Notes under the pieces: model-generated
Told to the model about the DNA's origin: nothing
The model's input: the letters and a program-made list of their open reading frames with translations, nothing else
Database searches by the model: none
DNA from: Escherichia coli
GTDB lineage: Bacteria; Pseudomonadota; Gammaproteobacteria; Enterobacterales; Enterobacteriaceae
NCBI RefSeq assembly: GCF_050320075.1
Contig: NZ_CP190018.1
Strand: one strand, 5' to 3'
DNA: 64,000 nucleotides
Translations under genes and position numbers: made by a program
In this document: piece by piece, positions 1-29,191 of the stretch
How the letters are laid out: each line of letters starts with the position of its first letter
Numbering within the stretch: the stretch's first letter is position 1

Positions 1-2280
1 ATGGCCGTTAAAGCCTCCGGGCGTTTTGTCCCTCCGTCAGCATTTGCCGCAGGCACCGGTAAGGCGTTTACCGGTGCTTATGCATGGAACGCGCCACGCG
101 AGGCTGTCGGGCGCGAAAGACCCCTTACACGTGACGAGATGCGTCAGGTGCAAGGTGTTTTATCCACGATTAACCGCCTGCCTTACTTTTTGCGCTCGCT
201 GTTTACTTCACGCTATGACTACATCCGGCGCAATAAAAGCCCGGTGCACGGGTTTTATTTCCTCACATCCACTTTTCAGCGTCGTTTATGGCCGCGCATT
301 GAGCGCGTGAATCAGCGCCATGAAATGAACACCGACGCGTCGTTGCTGTTTCTGGCAGAGCGTGACCATTATGCGCGTCTGCCGGGGATGAATGACAAGG
401 AACTGAAAAAGTTTGCCGCCCGTATCTCATCGCAGCTTTTCATGATGTATGAGGAACTCTGCGATGCATGGGTTGATGCACATGGCGAGAAAGAATCGCT
501 GTTTACGGATGAGGCTCAGGCGCATCTGTATGGTCATGTTGCTGGCGCTGCACGAGCTTTCAATATTTCCCCTCTCTACTGGAAAAAATACCGTAAAGGA
601 CAGATGACCACGAGGCAGGCATATTCTGCCATTGCCCGTCTGTTTAACGATGAGTGGTGGACTCATCAGCTTAAAGGTCAGCGTATGCGCTGGCATGAGG
701 CGTTACTGATTGCTGTCGGGGAGGTGAATAAAGACCGTTCTCCTTATGCCAGTAAACATGCCATTCGTGATGTGCGTGCGCGCCGCCAGGCAAATCTGGA
801 ATTTCTTAAATCGTGTGACCTTGAAAACAGGGAAACCGGCGAGCGCATCGACCTTATCAGTAAGGTGATGGGAAGTATTTCTAATCCTGAAATTCGCCGG
901 ATGGAGCTGATGAACACCATTGCCGGTATTGAGCGTTACGCCGCCGCAGAGGGTGATGTGGGGATGTTTATCACGCTGACCGCGCCGTCAAAGTATCACC
1001 CGACACGTCAGGTCGGAAAAGGCGAAAGTAAAACCGTCCAGCTAAATCACGGCTGGAACGATGAGGCATTTAATCCAAAGGATGCGCAGCGTTATCTCTG
1101 CCGCATCTGGAGCCTGATGCGCACGGCATTCAAGGATAATGATTTACAGGTCTACGGTTTGCGTGTCGTCGAGCCACACCACGACGGAACGCCGCACTGG
1201 CATATGATGCTTTTTTGTAATCCACGTCAGCGTAACCAGATTATCGAAACCATGCGTCGCTACGCGCTCAAAGAGGATGGCGACGAAAGAGGAGCCGAGC
1301 GAAACCGTTTTCAGGCGAAACACCTTAACCGGGGCGGTGCTGCGGGGTATATCGCGAAATACATTTCAAAAAATATCGACGGCTATGCACTGGATGGTCA
1401 GCTCGATAACGATACCGGCAGACCTCTGAAAGATACTGCCGCGGCTGTTACTGCATGGGCGTCAACGTGGCGCATCCCGCAATTTAAAACGGTTGGTCTG
1501 CCGACAATGGGGGCTTACCGTGAACTACGCAAATTGCCTCGCGGCGTCAGCATTGCTGATGAGTTTGACGAACGCGTCGAGGCTGCACGCGCTGCCGCAG
1601 ACAGTGGCGATTTTGCGTTGTATATCAGTGCGCAGGGTGGGGCAAATGTTCCGCGCGATTGCCAGACTGTCAGAGTCGCCCGTAGCCCGTCGGATGAAGT
1701 TAACGAGTACGAGGAAGAAGTCGAGAGAGTGGTCGGCATTTACGCGCCGCATCTCGGCGCGCGTCATATTCATATCACCAGAACGACAGACTGGCGCATT
1801 GTTCCGAAAGTTCCGGTCGTGGAGCCTTTAACTTTAAAAAGCGGCATCGCCGCGCCTCGGAGTCCTGTCAATAACTGTGGAAAGCTCACCGGTGGTGATA
1901 CTTCGTTACCGGCTCCCACACCTTCTGAGCACGCCGCAGCAGTGCTTAATCTGGTTGATGACGGTGTTATTGAATGGAATGACCAGGAGGTCGTGAGGGC
2001 GCTCAGGGGCGCATTAAAACGAGGTCTGAGAAGACCAAACCGTCAGCAAAGAAACGGAAGCCCGTTAAAACAGCATGAAATGGCACCATCGGCCAGACTG
2101 ACCCGGTCAGAACGAATGCAAATTACCCGTATCCGCGTTGACCTTGCTCAGAACGGTATCAGGCCGCAGCGATGGGAGCTTGAGGCGCTGGCGCGTGGAG
2201 CAATTGTAAATTACGACGGGAAAAAATTCACGTATCCAGTCGCTGATGAGTGGCGGGGATTCTCAGCAGTAATGGAGTGA
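1..2280 (+). CDS. A: Phage replication initiation protein (P2 gpA-like, rolling-circle nickase)
   Basis: 759-aa ORF at the position and size of P2 A (761 aa), immediately before the cargo island and cos; starts at window edge so the N-terminus could extend upstream. Confidence 0.8.
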   Translation: MAVKASGRFVPPSAFAAGTGKAFTGAYAWNAPREAVGRERPLTRDEMRQVQGVLSTINRLPYFLRSLFTSRYDYIRRNKSPVHGFYFLTSTFQRRLWPRIERVNQRHEMNTDASLLFLAERDHYARLPGMNDKELKKFAARISSQLFMMYEELCDAWVDAHGEKESLFTDEAQAHLYGHVAGAARAFNISPLYWKKYRKGQMTTRQAYSAIARLFNDEWWTHQLKGQRMRWHEALLIAVGEVNKDRSPYASKHAIRDVRARRQANLEFLKSCDLENRETGERIDLISKVMGSISNPEIRRMELMNTIAGIERYAAAEGDVGMFITLTAPSKYHPTRQVGKGESKTVQLNHGWNDEAFNPKDAQRYLCRIWSLMRTAFKDNDLQVYGLRVVEPHHDGTPHWHMMLFCNPRQRNQIIETMRRYALKEDGDERGAERNRFQAKHLNRGGAAGYIAKYISKNIDGYALDGQLDNDTGRPLKDTAAAVTAWASTWRIPQFKTVGLPTMGAYRELRKLPRGVSIADEFDERVEAARAAADSGDFALYISAQGGANVPRDCQTVRVARSPSDEVNEYEEEVERVVGIYAPHLGARHIHITRTTDWRIVPKVPVVEPLTLKSGIAAPRSPVNNCGKLTGGDTSLPAPTPSEHAAAVLNLVDDGVIEWNDQEVVRALRGALKRGLRRPNRQQRNGSPLKQHEMAPSARLTRSERMQITRIRVDLAQNGIRPQRWELEALARGAIVNYDGKKFTYPVADEWRGFSAVME

Positions 2281-3004: not shown

Positions 3005-3562
3005 ATGCTGACAGTGCTGTTTTATGTGCTGTTGGGTTTAGGCGCAGCACACTTCATTTACGAGCGAATCATTTTGCCGTCCATCCGACTTCATTATAGA
3101 AACCAATTGTTTGCGCTTCGTGATGTCGCTAGGAGGAAAATCATTGATGGAGGTTCCGATACTTCCATGCAAGCGGCAACACTTGTGCATGACTCATTGA
3201 ATAACGCTATCAATAGATTGCATTTACTCACGTTGCCAAACAAATTTCGTGCTCAAAAGCGTATGGCAGAAAACCATGCAATAAGGCAGAAAATTCGGCG
3301 TGAGATAGATGTTTTCAAACGCTGTGATGATAGAGAAGTTGTTGATGTACTGTTTAAATCCGGTCGGATACTTGAAAATGTACTGTTATTCAATAGCTTA
3401 ATGTTATTGCTTTACATGTTTCCATTTGTCCTTGCTGTATGGTTCTGTGTTAGGGTCATAAAGACAGCAAGTAGTTTAGTACAGTGGGTCAAAGGAAGAG
3501 ATTTAGAGGAAGCTATAATGCTGCTTCCTGATACTCAGGTTGAAAAGGTTGTATACGCATAA
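3005..3562 (+). CDS. Membrane protein, 185 aa, hydrophobic N-terminal and C-terminal segments (cargo)
   Basis: ORF track; AGGAG-like RBS 7 nt upstream of ATG; 20 bp after the preceding ORF, so co-operonic; hydrophobic segments MLTVLFYVLLGLGAAHFIY and LMLLLYMFPFVLAVWFCV. Confidence 0.65.
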   Translation: MLTVLFYVLLGLGAAHFIYERIILPSIRLHYRNQLFALRDVARRKIIDGGSDTSMQAATLVHDSLNNAINRLHLLTLPNKFRAQKRMAENHAIRQKIRREIDVFKRCDDREVVDVLFKSGRILENVLLFNSLMLLLYMFPFVLAVWFCVRVIKTASSLVQWVKGRDLEEAIMLLPDTQVEKVVYA

Positions 3563-3590: not shown

Positions 3591-3801
3591 ACATGACTTT
3601 TGATTAGCTGACATTGTAAATCCGCATGTATCAGATGCATTGTTTTGCATGTGGAAATGGGTGTTTTCACTGCCAGCTATCGCTACATGTAGCAAAAACA
3701 CGGGCTTAATAAGAAATCATTCTGCCATAAGGCATAACTTCCCCGCGTGCTCAGGTATTGACGTCATAGATATGGATCTTTTTTAATCAAGGTATGGTAT
3801 T

Positions 3802-4749
3802 ATGAAGATATTTATTAGTTGGTCAGGTCAGGACAGCCTGGAGATAGCAAAAGTATTACGGGATTGGATACCGAATGTTATTCAAGTAGCTGAGCCGTAC
3901 GTATCAGCGGAAGATATTGATAAAGGCACTCGCTGGGCGACTGATATATCAAAGGAACTTGATGACTCTTCTTATGGGATTATTTGCCTTACAAAAAATA
4001 ATATTAATGCACCGTGGATAAATTTTGAGGCGGGTGCTTTAGGTAAAAAGGTTGATAAGAGCCGGGTTAGTCCTTTCTTGTTTAAAATTAAACCATCTGA
4101 GATAACAGGCCCAATATTACAATTCCAGTATACTCGTTCGGATGATAAGAACGATATTTTGAAGTTGATGTTGTCAATAAATAATCAAGCAGGATTTTTG
4201 ACTGAAGAACGCTTAACTAAAGCTTTCGAGCAATGGTGGCCAAGTTTAGAGCGTGAGTTAGATAACATTCAAGATATTAACCCTGTAGATAAAGATTCCA
4301 CTAAAAAAACAAAAGGTGATTCGACTTCTGAGATACAAAATCTTTCCAAAATTGTTGAAAGTTTGCTGGATATTAGCCGAACAAATCACCAATTATTGCG
4401 TGATCCAGCATCATTATTGCCAGAAGAATATGTTAGCAAAATAATAAACAGGGAAGGGCGTAAAGAAACTGTTTTAAAAATTGTAGCTTCTGATTTATTA
4501 TCCATGCATCATTCACTAATTCGTGTAAAAAGAAGATTTATTCGCCGTGGTATTGATGAAACATCTAGGAGCGAGTTAATTGAATCATTAAATAAAATGA
4601 TAATGGATTGTTCTAGAGTAATCGCTCACTTAGATAATTATTGTGGGGCTTCATCAAACAATATGTTCAATAGTGCGCTTAGATTGCGGACCAGAAATTT
4701 AATTGACATGATGGATGAGGAGGATGCAGAACGGGATGAAATGGAATAA
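3802..4749 (+). CDS. TIR-like domain protein, 315 aa: N-terminal TIR-like fold (~130 aa) plus helical C-terminal domain of unknown function (cargo, candidate defence protein)
   Basis: N-terminus MKIFISWSGQDS...GIICLT...APWINFEAGAL matches the bacterial TIR/TIR-like signature (FISYS-type strand 1, conserved W..E.G motif) by eye; no HMM search run. Confidence 0.65.
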   Translation: MKIFISWSGQDSLEIAKVLRDWIPNVIQVAEPYVSAEDIDKGTRWATDISKELDDSSYGIICLTKNNINAPWINFEAGALGKKVDKSRVSPFLFKIKPSEITGPILQFQYTRSDDKNDILKLMLSINNQAGFLTEERLTKAFEQWWPSLERELDNIQDINPVDKDSTKKTKGDSTSEIQNLSKIVESLLDISRTNHQLLRDPASLLPEEYVSKIINREGRKETVLKIVASDLLSMHHSLIRVKRRFIRRGIDETSRSELIESLNKMIMDCSRVIAHLDNYCGASSNNMFNSALRLRTRNLIDMMDEEDAERDEME

Positions 4750-5502: not shown

Positions 5503-6420
5503 ATGGATTATACGAGCTATATAATAGGACAGCTTCAGGTTGAGGATATTATTGATGCAATTAAAGGCGTTAATAATACTAATGTCATAAAAGATTATGT
5601 GCTGCCTGTAGTATTACCAATTATATCTTCTGTGCTGAGTTACTTTATTGCAACTAGGTTGTTTTATCGGCAGGAGTACCTTAAAGCACAAAGAAGAAAG
5701 GTAAGCGTTGTAAATAAATGTATTTATGACTACTTTTCTGCAATGACAACGTTGTTGCAAATTAAAGGGAATTATTATGGTGGGGTAAGTATAAGTGAAA
5801 ATCCTATCGAGAGGGCTTTAGCTTTTCCTGTTGTGGTTTTTTCTGGTGCTCCTCTATCATCAGATTTAAGTGAGTTGGCCTGTATATTGAGTCAAAAGGG
5901 AGTAGGGAATAATAGAGAGCCAGCAAAGACTACTAACTGGGGGGATGCTTTTGCTGTTAGTGATATAGCAAGAAGGTTTAACAGCCTATTGGCTGCATTA
6001 AATGTTAGGAATGATTTTGATGACACCTATAGAGGAATGATTATTGAATCAACAGGTTCACCTTTGCCTACGATGCGTTTTAAAAATGATGATATTGTTA
6101 ATGCTATAGGTAGTAATAAGGCAGCTTATTACATTGATATTACTGAGCAAATAATGATTATGATAGATGTTTTGTTGCTTGATATTAATCTGTTGCTCAA
6201 AGAGTTGCCATTGTATGCTGAATCGCTGTTTGACAAAAGAGTAATGCAAGAAGATTCAGGGATTCTTAAATTCAATGATTTGCACGAACGTTTTCCTCTA
6301 CTTATGAAACCTGTAACGCCACCTTCGATTAAACTCATGTCTGATTATTTGGGGTACAGTGAAGATGAGATCTTACGACGCTATCCATACCCGTTCTTTA
6401 ATATGCATGATTGTGAATGA
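5503..6420 (+). CDS. Hypothetical protein, 305 aa, single N-proximal TM helix, no domain recognised (cargo)
   Basis: ORF track; translationally coupled to the upstream lipoprotein ORF; hydrophobic segment VLPVVLPIISSVLSYFIATRLFY; strongly AT-rich. Confidence 0.65.
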   Translation: MDYTSYIIGQLQVEDIIDAIKGVNNTNVIKDYVLPVVLPIISSVLSYFIATRLFYRQEYLKAQRRKVSVVNKCIYDYFSAMTTLLQIKGNYYGGVSISENPIERALAFPVVVFSGAPLSSDLSELACILSQKGVGNNREPAKTTNWGDAFAVSDIARRFNSLLAALNVRNDFDDTYRGMIIESTGSPLPTMRFKNDDIVNAIGSNKAAYYIDITEQIMIMIDVLLLDINLLLKELPLYAESLFDKRVMQEDSGILKFNDLHERFPLLMKPVTPPSIKLMSDYLGYSEDEILRRYPYPFFNMHDCE

Positions 6421-6713: not shown

Positions 6714-7748
6714 TCAGCCGTTGTCAGTGTCCAGTGAGTAGTTTTTAAAGCGGATGACCTCCTGACCGAGCCAGCCGTTTATTTCCCGAATCCTGTCCTG
6801 TAACGGGATAAGCTCATTGCGGACAAAGACCTTTGCCACTTTCTCAATATCGCCCAGTGACCCGACGTTCTCCGGCTTGCCGCCCATCAACTGAAAGGGG
6901 ATGCGGTGCGCGTCCAGCAGGTCAGCGGCGCTGGCTTTTTTGATATTAAAAAAATCGTCCTTCGTTGCCACTTCACTGAGCGGGATAATTTTAATGCCGT
7001 CGGCTTTCCCCTGTGGGGCATAGAGAAACAGATTTTTAAAGTTATTGCGGCCTTTCGACTTCACCATGTTTTCGCGAAGCATTTCGATATCGTTGCGATC
7101 CTGCACGGCATCGGTGACGTACATGATGTATCCGGCATGCGCGCCGTTTTCGTAATACTTGCGGCGGAACAGCGTGGCCGACTCATTCAGCCAGGCAGAG
7201 TTAAGGGCGCTGAGATATTCCGGCAGGCCGTACAGCTCCTGATTAATATCCGGCTCCAGCAGGTGAAACACGGAGCCGGGCGCGAAAGGTGTCGGCTCGT
7301 TGAAGGACGGCACCCACCAGTAAACATCCTCCTCAACACCACGGCGGGTATATTTTGCCGGTGAGGTTTCCAGTCTGATGACCTTACCGGTGGTGCTGTA
7401 GCGCTTTTCCAGAAACGCATTACCGAACACCAGAAAATCCAGCACAAAGCGGCTGAAATCCTGCTGGGAAAGCCACGGGTGCGGAATAAACGTTGAAGCC
7501 AGAATATTACGTTTGACGTAAATCGGTGAGCTGTGATGTACGGCAGCACGCAGGCTTTTTGCCAGACCGGTAAAGCTGACCGGTGGCTCATACCATCTGC
7601 CGTTACTGATGCACTCGACGTAATCCAGAATGTCACGGCGGTCGAGTACCGGCACCGGCTCACCAAAGGTGAATGCCTCCATTTTCGGGGCGCTGGCGGT
7701 CATTGTTTTTGCCGCAGGTTGCGGTGTTTTCCCTTTTTTCTTGCTCAT
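6714..7748 (-). CDS. Q: Portal protein (P2 gpQ-like)
   Basis: 344 aa, same length and position as P2 Q; start overlaps stop of terminase gene by 1 nt. Confidence 0.9.
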   Translation of the reverse strand: MSKKKGKTPQPAAKTMTASAPKMEAFTFGEPVPVLDRRDILDYVECISNGRWYEPPVSFTGLAKSLRAAVHHSSPIYVKRNILASTFIPHPWLSQQDFSRFVLDFLVFGNAFLEKRYSTTGKVIRLETSPAKYTRRGVEEDVYWWVPSFNEPTPFAPGSVFHLLEPDINQELYGLPEYLSALNSAWLNESATLFRRKYYENGAHAGYIMYVTDAVQDRNDIEMLRENMVKSKGRNNFKNLFLYAPQGKADGIKIIPLSEVATKDDFFNIKKASAADLLDAHRIPFQLMGGKPENVGSLGDIEKVAKVFVRNELIPLQDRIREINGWLGQEVIRFKNYSLDTDNG

Positions 7749-15968: not shown

Positions 15969-16754
15969 TTATGAGTGGTTTTTATTTGATGCTTTGTATT
16001 CTAAAACCTTCTTATTGGCGTAAAGGAATTTTGTATATGACAGGAATATAAGCAGACCTGAAATGAAATAGGTTAGGGATATTATTAATAATGTTTTTTT
16101 GTAGCTGTTATTATCTTTAATCTCCTGACTTAACCATTCGGAGTCCTCCTTGTTTAGCTGTAAGAGCTTATTGCAGGCGATCTCGGGAAGTGTGTCTTTT
16201 ATAAATACGTTTTGCAGACTCTTGCAATCGGCAAGGCTATAAGTTTTATTAAATTCAACCGTTTTATTTTTGAAGGATAAAAGAACTTTGTCACTATAAA
16301 CATAGTACATCATATTTTTATATGGTATACCTATGGCATCCCTTACTATAGCGGATTGTTCATTGTGTATATAACATGCGAAGAGAATATAAATAATACT
16401 GGCCAGAATTACAATTGTTGTTTTAATTATGTGTGGTGGTTTTGTTATGTCACCCCAGAAGCGAGTAAGGAAAAAATACGATGTTTTTAGTTTTCCATCA
16501 ATCAGCCCCTGCTGTATCATTCTCACATCTTCGATGCCTGATACATTGATTCCGTTAATTATTTTAAATAGTTGAATGTCGCGCCATTTTTTGTCGAGCA
16601 TTTTTAACTTTCTGTCTGAATACTCAAGATTGAAATGATGTGCAATAAACCTCATAAGATTACTTTTACCAAAGGTAACAAATGTTAATGCTATTAATAA
16701 AAATAGATACAAAGAGATAAACCACCACGCATTAGTCACATTATCACTGAACAT
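15969..16754 (-). CDS. Integral membrane protein, 261 aa, three predicted TM helices, reverse-oriented moron between S and V (cargo)
   Basis: ORF track; GAGGAG RBS 6 nt upstream of ATG; very AT-rich; opposite strand to the flanking late operon. Confidence 0.7.
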   Translation of the reverse strand: MFSDNVTNAWWFISLYLFLLIALTFVTFGKSNLMRFIAHHFNLEYSDRKLKMLDKKWRDIQLFKIINGINVSGIEDVRMIQQGLIDGKLKTSYFFLTRFWGDITKPPHIIKTTIVILASIIYILFACYIHNEQSAIVRDAIGIPYKNMMYYVYSDKVLLSFKNKTVEFNKTYSLADCKSLQNVFIKDTLPEIACNKLLQLNKEDSEWLSQEIKDNNSYKKTLLIISLTYFISGLLIFLSYTKFLYANKKVLEYKASNKNHS

Positions 16755-21418: not shown

Positions 21419-21946
21419 ATGATGCACTTAAAGAACATAAAAGCGGGTAACGCTAAAACACTGGAACAGTATGAGTTAACAAAGAAACACGGAGTTATCT
21501 GGCTTTACTCTGAGGACGGAAAAAACTGGTATGAGGAAGTGAAGAACTTTCAGCCAGACACAATAAAGATTGTTTACGATGAAAATAATATTATTGTCGC
21601 TATCACCAGAGATGCTTCAACGCTTAATCCTGAAGGTTTTAGCGTTGTTGAGGTTCCTGATATTACCTCCAACCGACGTGCTGACGACTCAGGTAAATGG
21701 ATGTTTAAGGATGGTGCTGTGATTAAACGAATTTATACGGCAGAGGAATTGCAGCAGCAGGCAGAAAATCGGAAAGGCAGACTTCTTGCAGATGCTGAAT
21801 CCGTGATTTTGCCGCTGGAGCGCGCTGTCAGGCTGAATATGGCAACAGATGAGGAACGCAGCCGACTGGAAGCATGGGAACGCTACAACGTTCTGGTCAG
21901 TCGTGTGGATACTGCAAATCCTGAATGGCCAGAAATGCCGCAATAA
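21419..21946 (+). CDS. G: Tail fibre assembly protein (P2 gpG-like)
   Basis: 175 aa, immediately downstream of H. Confidence 0.8.
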
Positions 21947-22240
21947 GTTGTATGAGTTCTGGTGGGAGTTTACATATCTATGGCACAGAGTAAAGCCTAA
22001 TCTGACAGTCCGCTCTGTGCCAGGAGCGGACATCCCACACTTCTGCTTCTGTGGCCAAAATCCGTATGCCACTACACTGCTGGCTTTTTAAGCGGCATTA
22101 ATCATATGGCTTCCTGTGAAAACGAAGGGTAAAATGGATAGGTATACGCTATAGAATTATGTATATGCTACATATACTAACAACGAAAGCAGGTTGCAAA
22201 GCAGCCTGTATAATCATCACTTAAGTTCATGGAATAAAAT

Positions 22241-22891
22241 ATGCATACTGGCTTTAAGGGAACTTATGACGCACTTTTGAGGCTTGAGAAGGCTATAGAA
22301 GGTCTGACCATCCAAGATGGGTTGATGACGAATACTCTTGGAGTTGGTGTTCCGGCAATAACATCAGATGACCTAATTGACCAAATAATTTGCATTATTA
22401 ACAAGCTGAAAGCATATGGTGATATTGAACTAACTGAAAAAGAAATTGCCGCTTATTCATCTCTCCCTGAAAAAATTGACACACTCATTAGAGTTCACGT
22501 CCCAGAGTTCTCAGGCGTTAACTCCGCACGAGCTATATCTTCATATATGCTAACACTGGCATATGTTGACCATTTCTTGGATGAATCGTTTACATGGAAG
22601 CGGTTGGATAATGCTAATTTACTTCCTAGAAATTTAAGCAGAAAAATTAAAAGCATGGAGGCGAGAATTAACAAGATTGATCCTGAGATGGATGCTCTTG
22701 AGAGTAAAGTTAAAACGATTAATGATGCTCATGTAGCTGCAGAAAATATACCTATAGACTTAAATGAATTAAAGGAATACAACAAAGAAGCATCTGATTT
22801 AAAGGAGAAGATATCTAAAACTCATTTCAGTTTAGAGTCCCAAGAAGAAGCCGCAAAAAAAATTATTGATGAGTTGCAAGAAAAAATATAG
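22241..22891 (+). CDS. Cargo protein at the Z/fun position, N-terminal part: 216 aa, soluble, coiled-coil-rich C-terminal half; probably the 5' portion of a longer frameshifted gene
   Basis: ORF track; TATAAT-like -10 element about 27 nt upstream; ends in TAG at 22889-22891 directly after an A6 tract. Confidence 0.6.
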   Translation: MHTGFKGTYDALLRLEKAIEGLTIQDGLMTNTLGVGVPAITSDDLIDQIICIINKLKAYGDIELTEKEIAAYSSLPEKIDTLIRVHVPEFSGVNSARAISSYMLTLAYVDHFLDESFTWKRLDNANLLPRNLSRKIKSMEARINKIDPEMDALESKVKTINDAHVAAENIPIDLNELKEYNKEASDLKEKISKTHFSLESQEEAAKKIIDELQEKI

Positions 22892-23016
22892 AGGCTGCCC
22901 GGTATCTGGCTCTTTGCGAAGAGGCTATTAGGGCTTCAACATCGAAAGGCTTAGCAGGAGCATTTGAAATAAAAGCAGATAAGCTTAACCGAAGTATCCA
23001 ACTATGGGTTGCCGGT

Positions 23017-23541
23017 TTGGCAGTTGCTTTGGGGCTTGGTGGTTTAGTCGGATATGAAAGATTGAAAGTTCTTTCTGGGGTTTTGAATAACCCAAATCCC
23101 AGTGCGGTAGTAATACTCACTCAATTACTATTATCTGTTTTTAGCATAGGCGCCCCTCTTTGGTTTGCTTGGATGTCTACAAAACAAATTAATCAACGTT
23201 TCAAACTCGCAGAGGATTATGCTTATAAAGCTTCTGTGGCTAAAGCGTATGAGGGATACAAAAATGAGGCATGCAAGGTATCAGATGGAGAGTTCGAAAA
23301 ACGCTTATTTGATTCTGCGCTAAGTCGACTTGAAGAGGCTCCATTGCGTTTTGTGAAAGATGAAGATCATACTACTCCTTGGACAGAAATGCTTAATTCT
23401 AAGTCGTTTCAAAAATTCTTAGATGCCTCCATTGATAATGTAAATTATGTTAAAGGGATTATAAGTAAGAAAGGCCAATCAGCAGCTAAAGCAAGCAATG
23501 ATGAGGTTAATCACATTGAAAAACTAAAGAATGAAGCTTGA
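23017..23541 (+). CDS. Cargo protein, C-terminal part: two TM helices plus about 130-aa C-terminal domain; reading frame is open back to 22873 with no in-frame ATG or RBS, consistent with fusion to the upstream ORF through a -1 shift
   Basis: Track start is a TTG; hand translation of 22873-23016 is stop-free and continues the coiled-coil (EAARYLALCEEAIRASTSKG...). Confidence 0.5.
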   Translation: MAVALGLGGLVGYERLKVLSGVLNNPNPSAVVILTQLLLSVFSIGAPLWFAWMSTKQINQRFKLAEDYAYKASVAKAYEGYKNEACKVSDGEFEKRLFDSALSRLEEAPLRFVKDEDHTTPWTEMLNSKSFQKFLDASIDNVNYVKGIISKKGQSAAKASNDEVNHIEKLKNEA

Positions 23542-23553
23542 ATTATAATACTG

Positions 23554-23576
23554 CCTCCGCAAGTGCGAGGCTTTTA
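23554..23576 (+). terminator. Rho-independent terminator after the Z/fun-position cargo gene
   Basis: gcctc-cgcaagtgc-gaggc stem-loop followed by TTTT. Confidence 0.6.
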
Positions 23577-23582
23577 CATTAA

Positions 23583-23611
23583 CTGCCCTGCAGTAAATCT
23601 AGGGCAGTTTT
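23583..23611 (+). terminator. Second tandem terminator
   Basis: ctgccct-...-agggcag stem-loop followed by TTTT. Confidence 0.55.
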
Positions 23612-23910
23612 ACGTGCTAGGGGCTGAGTTGGCTAACCGGCTCTTTCAGCAGTCGGTCTGCCGCTATTGAGCTGGGGCTCAACGTGTGTGAGAACGTCAG
23701 ATTCAATACGTAGGTATGGCCTCACTCCTTATTTGAGCACTCGCAATACAGAGCGTTAAAGTGATCGCCTTTCGGTACTGATCTGCGAATGACTTTGGGG
23801 GATTTGCACTCAGGGGAGAGTAACTTCGTGACAACTTCCGCTCTTAGCTAAAAGCAGACTGTCATATTTGATAGCGTTTCGGCTATGTAAATAGTCAGTC
23901 GGAAAATGAG

Positions 23911-24051: not shown

Positions 24052-25242
24052 ATGAGTGACTATCATCACGGCGTGCAGGTGCTGGAGATTAACGACGGCA
24101 CCCGCGTCATTTCCACCGTATCCACGGCCATTGTCGGCATGGTCTGCACGGCCAGCGATGCGGATGCGGAAACCTTCCCCCTCAATAAACCGGTGCTGAT
24201 TACCAATGTGCAGAGCGCAATTGCAAAGGCCGGTAAAAAAGGCACGCTGGCGGCATCGTTGCAGGCCATCGCCGACCAGTCAAAACCGGTCACCGTTGTC
24301 GTGCGCGTGGAAGACGGCACCGGTGATGACGAGGAAACGAAACTCGCGCAGACCGTTTCCAATATCATCGGCACCACCGACGAAAACGGTCAGTATACCG
24401 GACTAAAAGCCCTGCTGGCGGCGGAGTCGGTAACCGGTGTTAAACCGCGTATTCTCGGTGTGCCGGGGCTGGACACCAAAGAGGTGGCTGTTGCACTGGC
24501 ATCCGTCTGTCAGAAGCTGCGCGCTTTCGGATATATCAGCGCATGGGGCTGTAAGACCATTTCCGAGGTGAAAGCCTACCGCCAGAATTTCAGCCAGCGT
24601 GAGCTGATGGTCATCTGGCCGGATTTCCTCGCATGGGATACGGTCGCCAGTACCACCGCCACCGCGTATGCCACCGCCCGTGCGCTGGGCCTGCGCGCTA
24701 AAATCGACCAGGAGCAGGGCTGGCATAAAACGCTGTCCAACGTCGGGGTAAACGGTGTTACCGGCATCAGTGCCTCTGTATTCTGGGATTTGCAGGAGTC
24801 CGGCACCGATGCTGACCTGTTGAACGAGTCAGGTGTCACAACGCTGATTCGCCGTGACGGTTTCCGATTCTGGGGTAACCGTACCTGCTCTGATGACCCG
24901 CTGTTCCTCTTTGAAAACTACACCCGCACCGCGCAGGTGCTGGCCGACACGATGGCTGAGGCGCACATGTGGGCGGTGGACAAGCCCATCACCGCAACGC
25001 TGATTCGCGACATCGTTGACGGCATCAATGCCAAATTCCGTGAGCTGAAAACAAACGGCTATATCGTGGATGCGACCTGCTGGTTCAGCGAAGAATCCAA
25101 CGATGCGGAAACCCTCAAGGCCGGAAAACTGTATATCGACTACGACTATACACCGGTGCCTCCTCTTGAAAACCTGACCCTGCGCCAGCGTATTACCGAT
25201 AAATACCTGGCAAATCTGGTCACCTCGGTTAACAGCAATTAA
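24052..25242 (+). CDS. FI: Tail sheath protein (P2 gpFI-like)
   Basis: 396 aa, size and position. Confidence 0.9.
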   Translation: MSDYHHGVQVLEINDGTRVISTVSTAIVGMVCTASDADAETFPLNKPVLITNVQSAIAKAGKKGTLAASLQAIADQSKPVTVVVRVEDGTGDDEETKLAQTVSNIIGTTDENGQYTGLKALLAAESVTGVKPRILGVPGLDTKEVAVALASVCQKLRAFGYISAWGCKTISEVKAYRQNFSQRELMVIWPDFLAWDTVASTTATAYATARALGLRAKIDQEQGWHKTLSNVGVNGVTGISASVFWDLQESGTDADLLNESGVTTLIRRDGFRFWGNRTCSDDPLFLFENYTRTAQVLADTMAEAHMWAVDKPITATLIRDIVDGINAKFRELKTNGYIVDATCWFSEESNDAETLKAGKLYIDYDYTPVPPLENLTLRQRITDKYLANLVTSVNSN

Positions 25243-25829: not shown

Positions 25830-26105
25830 ATGAACAAAGAAAATGTGATTACCCTGGACAATCCGGTCAAGCGTGGTGAGCAGGTTATCGAACAGGTCAC
25901 GCTGATGAAACCCAATGCCGGGACGCTGCGCGGTGTCAGTCTGGCTGCGGTCGCAAACTCCGAAGTCGATGCACTGATTAAAGTGCTGCCGCGCATGACG
26001 GCACCGATGCTGACTGAGCAGGAGGTCGCCGCGCTGGAGCTGCCTGACCTTGTGGCGCTGGCCGGTAAGGTGGTCGGTTTTTTGTCGCCGAACTCGGTGC
26101 AGTGA
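25830..26105 (+). CDS. E: Tail assembly chaperone (P2 gpE-like)
   Basis: 91 aa; contains slippery T TTT TTG near its 3' end. Confidence 0.8.
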   Translation: MNKENVITLDNPVKRGEQVIEQVTLMKPNAGTLRGVSLAAVANSEVDALIKVLPRMTAPMLTEQEVAALELPDLVALAGKVVGFLSPNSVQ

Positions 26106-26257
26106 CGTTTCCGAAAAATCTCTCGGTCGATGACCTGATGGCGGATGTGGCAGTGATATTTCACTGGCCGCCATCAGAACTGTATCCCATGAGCCTGACC
26201 GAACTCATCACATGGCGCGAAAAGGCGCTCCGGCGAAGCGGAAACACGAATGAGTAA
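25830..26257 (+). CDS. E+E': Tail assembly chaperone frameshift product (P2 gpE+E'-like), -1 programmed frameshift at T6G (26078-26084)
   Basis: Slippery heptamer TTTTTTG in zero-frame phase T TTT TTG; -1 frame stays open to TAA at 26255-26257, overlapping the T start; same arrangement as P2 E/E'. Confidence 0.65.
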
Positions 26258-28711: not shown

Positions 28712-29191
28712 ATGATGCTCGCGTTAGGTATGTTTGTTTTTATGCGCCAGACGCTGCCACACCAGATCATGCAGCGTGAATCAGATTATCGCTGGCCGTC
28801 AAATTCCCGTATCGGTAAACGGGATGCCTACCAGTTTCTCGGCGTTGGCGAGGAAAACATGACGCTGGCCGGTGTGCTTTATCCCGAACTGACCGGCGGC
28901 AAGCTGACGATGACCACGCTCAGGCTGATGGCAGATGAAGGCCGGGCGTGGCCGTTGCTGGATGGCACCGGCATGATTTACGGCATGTATGTCATCAGCA
29001 AGGTGAGTGAAACAGGGAGTATTTTCTTTGCAGACGGCACACCACGGAAAATTGATTTTACGCTGTCGCTCACCCGCGTTGATGAGTCACTGGCCGCGCT
29101 TTATGGCGATATCGGTAAACAGGCGGAATCGCTCATCGGTAAGGCTGGCAGTATGGCGACTAAATTCACGGGTATGACGGGGGCGGGATAA
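28712..29191 (+). CDS. U: Tail protein (P2 gpU-like)
   Basis: 159 aa, size and position. Confidence 0.85.
   Translation: MMLALGMFVFMRQTLPHQIMQRESDYRWPSNSRIGKRDAYQFLGVGEENMTLAGVLYPELTGGKLTMTTLRLMADEGRAWPLLDGTGMIYGMYVISKVSETGSIFFADGTPRKIDFTLSLTRVDESLAALYGDIGKQAESLIGKAGSMATKFTGMTGAG

Follow-up and report, generated by a model that had tools for sequence, protein, structure and literature searches.

The 64,000-nucleotide stretch of Escherichia coli DNA analysed here (the window; contig NZ_CP190018.1) contains a P2-like prophage, in whose Z region two consecutive open reading frames (ORFs) are the halves of one prophage accessory gene encoding 433 amino acids (aa). The break lies at a run of six adenines (A6; 22881..22886, plus strand) that has seven adenines (A7) in intact alleles, and this one-base contraction shifts the reading frame. 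The window probably carries a frameshift pseudogene allele that arose by a non-programmed one-base deletion. Whether the missing base is a real mutation or a miscall, the locus is one gene with a non-programmed break.

The gene and its break point

The upstream ORF (22241..22891, plus strand) has 216 codons and ends in TTG CAA GAA AAA ATA TAG. It is the 5' fragment of the broken gene and specifies native residues 1-215 plus an aberrant isoleucine, followed by the premature TAG at 22889..22891. The fragment corresponds to codons 1-215 of the intact 433-aa coding sequence (CDS) and is identical in three other prophage loci (L001, L004 and L005). In the -1 frame the final stop is the TGA at 22870..22872; from 22873 onward no stop interrupts this frame before the TGA at 23539..23541, which is the native stop, and the continuation (22873..23541, plus strand) encodes native residues 216-433. 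The two frames are jointly open only across the 16 nucleotides (nt) from 22873 to 22888, and the A run lies inside this interval. Addition of one A to the tract creates a 433-aa ORF containing ...ELQEKNIEAARYLALCEEAIR..., and the natural A7 alleles encode the identical sequence.

An earlier note on this DNA had described the end of the upstream ORF, the position of the A6 run and the span over which the -1 frame is open, and every one of its coordinates was borne out. It had also proposed that a single gene is present whose frame is restored by one A. The natural A7 alleles, which encode a 433-aa protein, have exactly the sequence that it predicted, and homologues with a single ORF, which align through the junction, lend the one-gene claim further support.

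The product of the 5' fragment is modelled as an N-terminal four-helix bundle plus most of a coiled coil, lacking a membrane anchor. The most conserved motif of the family, CEEAIRASTSKGLAGAFE (22915..22968, plus strand), is within the 3' part of the gene, as are the conserved helices of the C-terminus and two predicted transmembrane helices (approximately 22993..23058 and 23095..23172, plus strand), with peaks of hydropathy at residues 252-273 and 286-311.

The earliest ATG, GTG or TTG of the downstream frame is the TTG at 23017, and GGAG, GAGG and AGGA are all absent from the 25 nt 5' of it. The earlier observation that the downstream ORF has neither an ATG nor a ribosome-binding site therefore stands; there is no Shine-Dalgarno-like sequence. 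The annotated 'second gene' that begins at this TTG (23017..23541, plus strand; 174 aa) is an artefact of ORF calling, because the TTG is the codon of an invariant leucine, Leu260, inside transmembrane helix 1. RefSeq/PGAP lists two separate hypothetical proteins of 216 and 174 aa in six complete A6 genomes, just as in the window.

Alleles in other genomes

A megablast search with 22100..23650 as the query, run over 5,426 complete E. coli genomes, returned 18 matches with at least 99.4% identity, and the tract was measured in all of them. Eleven are A7 and have a single annotated 433-aa CDS (for example WP_089585673.1 and WP_021548490.1). One is A7 with the insertion sequence (IS) IS1 at the equivalent of 22641..22649, accompanied by a 9-bp duplication, and the other six are A6 and split as in the window. 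Exact-pattern scans permitting A6 to A8 in viral, metagenome and species-representative collections yielded four extra loci, three of them A7 and one A6. A8 was found at the tract in none of the 18 genomes and the four extra loci. The full census comprises 15 A7 loci (14 with an uninterrupted 433-aa frame and the one interrupted by IS1) and A6 in the window and 10 other loci, the latter on a haplotype different from that of the window wherever typed.

The earlier note had suggested a comparison of orthologous loci, and had regarded two separately initiated genes in orthologues as evidence against a single gene. The comparison revealed A7 relatives with a single uninterrupted gene, and the two-gene arrangement was absent among the homologues examined.

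One A7 locus, L025, is on a 9.7-kb contig (JAIJJM010000051.1) that was binned as part of a Collinsella metagenome-assembled genome. Besides the extra A it has no mismatch to the window over 22100..23650, and it is almost certainly a mis-binned Escherichia contig.

Alignment of 7.2 kb in 19 near-identical loci contains 561 columns with single-nucleotide polymorphisms (SNPs). The A tract is the sole frameshifting indel in this alignment, and the one A in the tract is the only length difference within the gene. The break at the A tract is therefore not a chance pattern. A second run in the same gene, A8 at 22855..22862 (plus strand), was overlooked in the earlier note; it lies 19 nt upstream of A6, and its length is constant in 18 of 19 loci, these being the ones that could be scored. 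It is the longest homopolymer of the window and the only run of at least 8 nt, against 64 runs of at least 6 nt and 10 of at least 7 nt. The A8 and A7 runs of the ancestral gene are longer than any other homopolymer in the region.

Origin of the A6 allele

At all variable columns of the gene region except the tract, the window is the same as L001, L003 and L005, which are A7 and of which L001 and L005 have the gene itself intact. L004 differs from the window by one further SNP, in the upstream intergenic flank. A7 is present on every haplotype, while A6 is confined to two tips. Comparison of these haplotypes indicates that A6 is the derived state, because A7 occurs on all of them and the haplotype of the window matches intact alleles. 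In comparison with E. coli Ec-U3 (NZ_CM192149.1), the 64,000 bases of the window show only three differences: two SNPs, at 28767 and 33466, and the indel in the A tract. The event in the window is thus recent. Strain 4114 was considered as a twin of the window and rejected, since its identity falls to 97-98.5% outside the gene; the true near-twin is Ec-U3.

Six SNPs that are absent from the window are common to the six other A6 genomes and three further assemblies (group B). Four of the six are also present in the intact loci L010, L012 and L013; the remaining two, 22137A and 23982T, are confined to this group of A6 loci. For the seventh A6 locus, L023 from the viral collection, the comparison with the window spans a shorter stretch and gives five mismatches; SNP-by-SNP typing covered the other nine. 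Since the other A6 genomes carry six SNPs missing from the window, two of them private, the simplest and most likely reading is that A7 contracted to A6 twice, independently and on different haplotypes. The truncated product of the second lineage was found on 333 contigs, and the assembly index lists it in 655 blocks; the A6 allele of this lineage is therefore certainly real. This second A6 lineage is a very widespread E. coli lineage.

Several related prophage copies appear to be decaying, as judged from their IS insertions. IS5, ISEc12 and IS1 are carried by such copies (3699..4667 and 8235..10537 of L021, from E. coli 4114, and 5566..6263 of L003). The copy in the window is free of these IS insertions, and all its long structural ORFs are open.

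Conservation and selection in the family

A profile search over 1.84 billion cluster representatives, with clusters defined at 50% identity, identified 545 clusters at E≤1e-30, a number that rises to 1,132 at E≤1e-10. Nearly all of the best 150 clusters are 405-475 aa long and have one end-to-end match each, and the alignments indicate that the family is that of a single polypeptide. The E. coli homologue WP_023155917.1 (436 aa, 55% identical), whose gene is in an integrase-bearing island adjoining yeeJ, aligns uninterrupted through the junction. Genomic context was examined for five diverged homologues, and none of their loci has a two-gene arrangement.

Invariant columns are concentrated toward the C-terminus: 49 of 51 are beyond residue 129 and 43 of 51 beyond residue 226. 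The conserved motif, CEEAxRxxTSKGLAGAFE, is just 3' of the break, and there is a second conserved stretch, KQIxQRFKLAEDYAxKASVAKAYEGY. Against the Enterobacter homologue the nonsynonymous divergence (dN) is 0.135 and the synonymous divergence (dS) is saturated; against the Kosakonia homologue dN/dS is 0.16 for the whole gene and 0.10 for its C-terminal half. These estimates point to purifying selection on the gene that is strongest in the half removed by the frameshift, because invariant residues cluster past residue 226 and dN/dS is lowest in the C-terminal half.

The run itself is absent or interrupted in two of the three homologues examined. The codons at the tract are AAG AAA AAT in the 80%-identical Enterobacter gene, where it is interrupted, and AAA GGG AAT in Kosakonia, where it is absent. 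In the third, the 55%-identical E. coli homologue, the corresponding codons form an A8; this gene is 33% A, has eleven runs of at least 6 nt and is annotated as intact in all 24 genomes that carry it.

Search for recoding signals

The zero-frame phase at the site is GAA AAA ATA, so that only the A_AAA tetramer can re-pair and A_AAA_ATA fails at the A site. No X_XXY_YYZ heptamer is present in the zero-frame phase at the A6 site. The downstream RNA shows no unusual structure (fold of 22875..22975, z = +0.73, with 150 of 200 shuffles folding as well), neither GGAG nor AGGA is found within 20 nt 5' of the A6 site as an upstream Shine-Dalgarno-like element, and a search of Rfam gave no family and one chance match with an E value of 0.8. 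A 'hungry' AUA codon was considered and ruled out, as ATA occurs 12 times in the gene. The shift site and the two-frame layout are not conserved, every homologue examined being single-frame.

In E. coli, tetramers without a stimulator shift at about 0.15% against a background of 0.11%, and A_AA.A is the weakest of six pseudoknot-responsive motifs (PMC4066793). Six adenines also fall short of the lengths known for transcriptional slippage, for which thresholds are about 9, with 8 in some IS elements and 11 in tssM1; selection against slippage-prone runs is evident from about 9 A or T (PMC1088944). A genuine shift site in the same window provides an internal contrast. The P2 E/E+E' site T_TTT_TTG is at 26078..26084 in the correct phase; the E gene occupies 25830..26105, and the -1 frame (E') runs to a stop at 26257. 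The annotation of E' by RefSeq is inconsistent across strains, appearing either as a 156-nt or as a 120-nt 'GpE family' CDS.

Proposed course of events

The ancestral protein of 433 aa would have begun with a four-helix bundle, continued in a long coiled coil and a pair of transmembrane helices, and ended in a helical region that is conserved, and its gene would have been an independently mobile cargo gene of a P2-like prophage, located between G and FI. Its codons GAA AAA AAT (Glu-Lys-Asn) form the A7 run, from which one A was lost in the lineage of the window, most probably by strand slippage during replication. The ribosome would then read GAA AAA ATA TAG and stop after residue 216. The truncation removes the conserved motif along with both membrane helices and the C-terminal region, which suggests a loss-of-function allele. 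With no start of its own, the downstream half could appear in a full-length protein only through background, unprogrammed slippage, at about 0.1-0.2% by analogy with A_AAA tetramers. The same contraction would have occurred independently in the second lineage, to be inherited by hundreds of isolates, and in a third lineage IS1 has disrupted the gene. Inactivation of the gene is recurrent, and the A-rich mutable sequence, a gene that is dispensable or costly in some hosts, or both, may account for this. Intact relatives, a derived state, loss of the conserved part and lack of a downstream start were all found here, and these are among the features by which frameshift pseudogenes are recognised.

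Alternative explanations

Several observations weigh against a real, twice repeated and inactivating deletion, and some of them are what would be expected of a sequencing or assembly artefact, in which the true sequence is A7, the gene is intact and the homopolymer was under-called. The window gene is otherwise identical to A7 alleles, Ec-U3 differs from the window at just three places in 64 kb, of which the indel is one, and the 216-aa product of the window is on a single contig in a collection of 15 billion proteins and is not on record in the contig index, so that a miscall is possible in this assembly. One-base deletions in A/T runs are a typical consensus error of long reads. A rough estimate from published E. 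coli mutation rates suggests that, under neutrality, the two accumulated SNPs would be more likely a priori than a real indel at one A7 tract. A short gene-conversion tract from a group-B prophage, with markers 534 nt upstream and 214 nt downstream, would be a less parsimonious substitute for the second deletion. The longer A8 run never varies, contrary to what a simple length-dependent mutability would predict, although two events carry no statistical weight. The 216-aa fragment could keep some activity, and tRNA-Lys(UUU) is shift-prone on A runs, by analogy with which a small unprogrammed leak from A6 is possible. Against an artefact, no other homopolymer differs from Ec-U3 over the 64 kb, the adjacent A8 included; because all the remaining homopolymers match, the assembly is not prone to errors in general. 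The same mutation has been shown to be real in another lineage, and the IS1 disruption elsewhere makes a real inactivation biologically plausible. We consider an artefact unlikely in the window, and as a general explanation it is excluded because the A6 allele is present in hundreds of independent assemblies. The earlier note had offered three explanations, of which single-base deletion has held up; sequencing error fails as a general explanation, and neither programmed slippage, ribosomal or transcriptional, nor an evolved phase switch is supported.

A contingency switch, in which the tract would alternate unusually often between an ON state (A7) and an OFF state (A6), so that a population of lysogens could reversibly express or silence a costly membrane protein, would fit the at least two independent changes of tract length, the third inactivation by IS1, which is compatible with an expression cost, and the A8 at the homologous codons of the 55%-identical E. 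coli homologue. All the same it is very unlikely. The tract has only contracted to A6 and A8 was never seen; A7 does not occur in any of the nine group-B loci in which the six SNPs were typed, and hundreds of contigs carry the OFF allele in unaltered form. Selection does not maintain the tract, given its interruption in Enterobacter and its absence from Kosakonia, A runs are expected from base composition alone in an A-rich gene with many lysine codons, and the homologue with A8 is intact by annotation wherever it was found. A7 is moreover short relative to known homopolymer switches. Programmed recoding, with A6 as the functional form and a -1 frameshift or RNA-polymerase slippage setting the ratio of short to long product, draws on the perfect -1 re-pairing of a shift-prone tRNA-Lys that A_AAA permits, with AUA and UAG as the next zero-frame codons, and on two precedents: in Citrobacter rodentium tssM1 an A11 run directly before a stop rescues an interrupted gene (PMC4256274), and C-AAA-AAA, which is A6 in another phase, gives 25-60% frameshifting under over-expression (PMC1851650). 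We judge it highly improbable, given that in-frame A7 alleles are ancestral and common, that every diverged homologue examined is one ORF, that the heptamer, downstream structure and upstream or Rfam elements are all missing from the site, that unstimulated tetramers shift at background (PMC4066793) and slippage tracts have 8-11 nt (PMC1088944, PMC4256274), and that the frequently used AUA is no specially placed hungry codon. Gene fission into two separately translated genes of a two-component system would agree with the two hypothetical proteins that RefSeq/PGAP lists in all A6 genomes inspected and with the persistence of the split allele in a large lineage. It is close to untenable, as its downstream 'start' would be the Leu260 codon in the middle of a transmembrane helix, with no ribosome-binding site, as the 44 conserved residues between the break and TTG 23017 would be lost, the best-conserved motif among them, and as none of the five diverged loci has two genes.

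The protein and its genomic setting

The gene is in the Z region of the P2-like prophage, bounded on the left by G and on the right by FI. The tail-fibre assembly gene homologous to P2 G (21419..21946, plus strand) was assigned from the RefSeq annotation of an identical gene and from a Pfam Caudo_TAP match to the neighbour in a related locus, and the tail sheath gene homologous to P2 FI (24052..25242, plus strand) from RefSeq and the layout of the P2 reference. The Z region of P2-like phages is a variable slot for horizontally acquired, non-essential genes (PMC3091744). The placement in the 'Z/fun slot' by the earlier note is correct by synteny; the protein itself is unrelated to P2 Fun(Z). 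A tblastn search of 50,697 phage records, P2 (AF063097) included, matched only a Providencia phage.

Sequence searches of the restored protein in Pfam, PADLOC, NCBIfam and the PDB gave only coiled-coil noise, and its PHROGs match, phrog_34659, is of unknown function. In the AlphaFold prediction, residues 1-125 form an N-terminal helical bundle; one helix, some 150 residues long, follows and continues into the first membrane segment, and after it come a hairpin and another long helix. Foldseek with the full-length model (predicted local distance difference test score, pLDDT, 72.6) returned nothing significant. A promoter and terminator scan found sites no more often than in shuffled controls, and no claim is made on a promoter of its own. 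The supplementary tables of Rousset et al. 2022, which covered the other P2 hotspot, and a full-text search for the RefSeq accessions contained no mention of the gene.

Homologues are solitary genes. Those of Enterobacter (L026, 5001..6302) and Kosakonia (L030, 6001..7299) are in the other P2 hotspot, which extends from the primase/replication gene to ogr/portal; that of Stenotrophomonas (L027, 6001..7296) is in a mobilisable element bearing an integrase and a relaxase; that of E. coli (L019, 3311..4621) is in the yeeJ-adjacent island, with decayed integrases; and that of a temperate Providencia phage is among hypothetical genes. The gene is predicted to encode a mobile membrane-anchored coiled-coil protein of phage cargo hotspots. 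The distribution of its homologues looks like that expected of mobile defence cargo, and it is possibly a defence gene, perhaps acting in phage exclusion through the membrane.

Two other variable regions of the prophage were inspected. The other P2 hotspot, between the replication gene (1..2280) and the portal gene (6714..7748), contains ORFs at 3005..3562 and 3802..4749 and also at 5503..6420. A TIR-based candidate defence pair is located in it, with matches to the PADLOC models '1TM-TIR' (2.7e-75) and 'TIR-TM' (2.3e-118; Pfam TIR_2), and a 305-aa ORF in the same hotspot has no family match. A 261-aa ORF (15969..16754, minus strand) between tail genes S and V occupies the P2 orf30 slot, a third variable region; it has no match in Pfam or PADLOC and is annotated as hypothetical in Ec-U3.

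Significance

The frameshift itself is ordinary. Its annotation as two 'hypothetical proteins' in six complete A6 genomes, with fragments on hundreds of contigs, should be replaced by one pseudogene. The gene has been inactivated separately at least three times, by what are most likely two contractions and by IS1, and one dead allele has spread with a successful lineage. A recent survey reported that recognisable pseudogenes of defence genes are rare at such loci (bioRxiv 10.64898/2026.02.27.708500). The present gene would be a counter-example to this rarity at the defence hotspots of P2/P4, and its history hints at a gene that is costly or, under some conditions, of no use.

The gene belongs to an unstudied family of more than 500 clusters, predicted to be solitary membrane-anchored coiled-coil proteins of about 430 aa. 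The family moves among both P2 hotspots, other prophages and integrative elements, and can for that reason be proposed as a candidate system of phage exclusion, new and made up of a single gene. As a natural null control, the A6 allele would be of use in testing a role in exclusion.

Comparison with known systems

P2 Fun(Z), known for lysogenic conversion and the exclusion of phages, occupies the same variable Z region between G and FI, but has 528 aa, is encoded on the opposite strand and has no tblastn similarity to the 433-aa protein. P2 E/E+E' is a closer parallel in form, a -1 frame change at a homopolymeric run in a P2-like phage. It differs in having T_TTT_TTG in phase, conserved as far as Burkholderia phages (PMC3091744), and two needed products, whereas the A6 site has no heptamer, is not conserved and has in-frame alleles. 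Genes rescued by slippage, such as C. rodentium tssM1, IS elements with A9 tracts and Thermus dnaX, likewise have an A run before a premature stop and the remainder of the gene in another frame. Their tracts are conserved and consist of 9-11 A, or of 8 in some IS elements (PMC4256274; PMC1088944), while the A6 tract has 6 A, derives from an in-frame A7 and is not conserved.

With phase-variable loci the gene shares an ON/OFF difference caused by a one-base change in a coding run, and recurrent change of the same tract. Contingency tracts in surface genes of Neisseria, Haemophilus and Campylobacter are usually longer, are selected and vary in both directions within clones. The A tract, in contrast, has changed only from A7 to A6 with no reversion detected, although a revertant A7 would look the same as an ancestral one, and it is missing from several homologues.

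The locus is most like genes split by a homopolymer indel, in which an A run has contracted, a stop follows within a few codons, relatives are intact and two ORFs are annotated. It goes beyond the usual split gene in that the tract was, most likely, hit twice, the dead allele is present in hundreds of isolates and the setting is a phage cargo hotspot; nothing essential differs.

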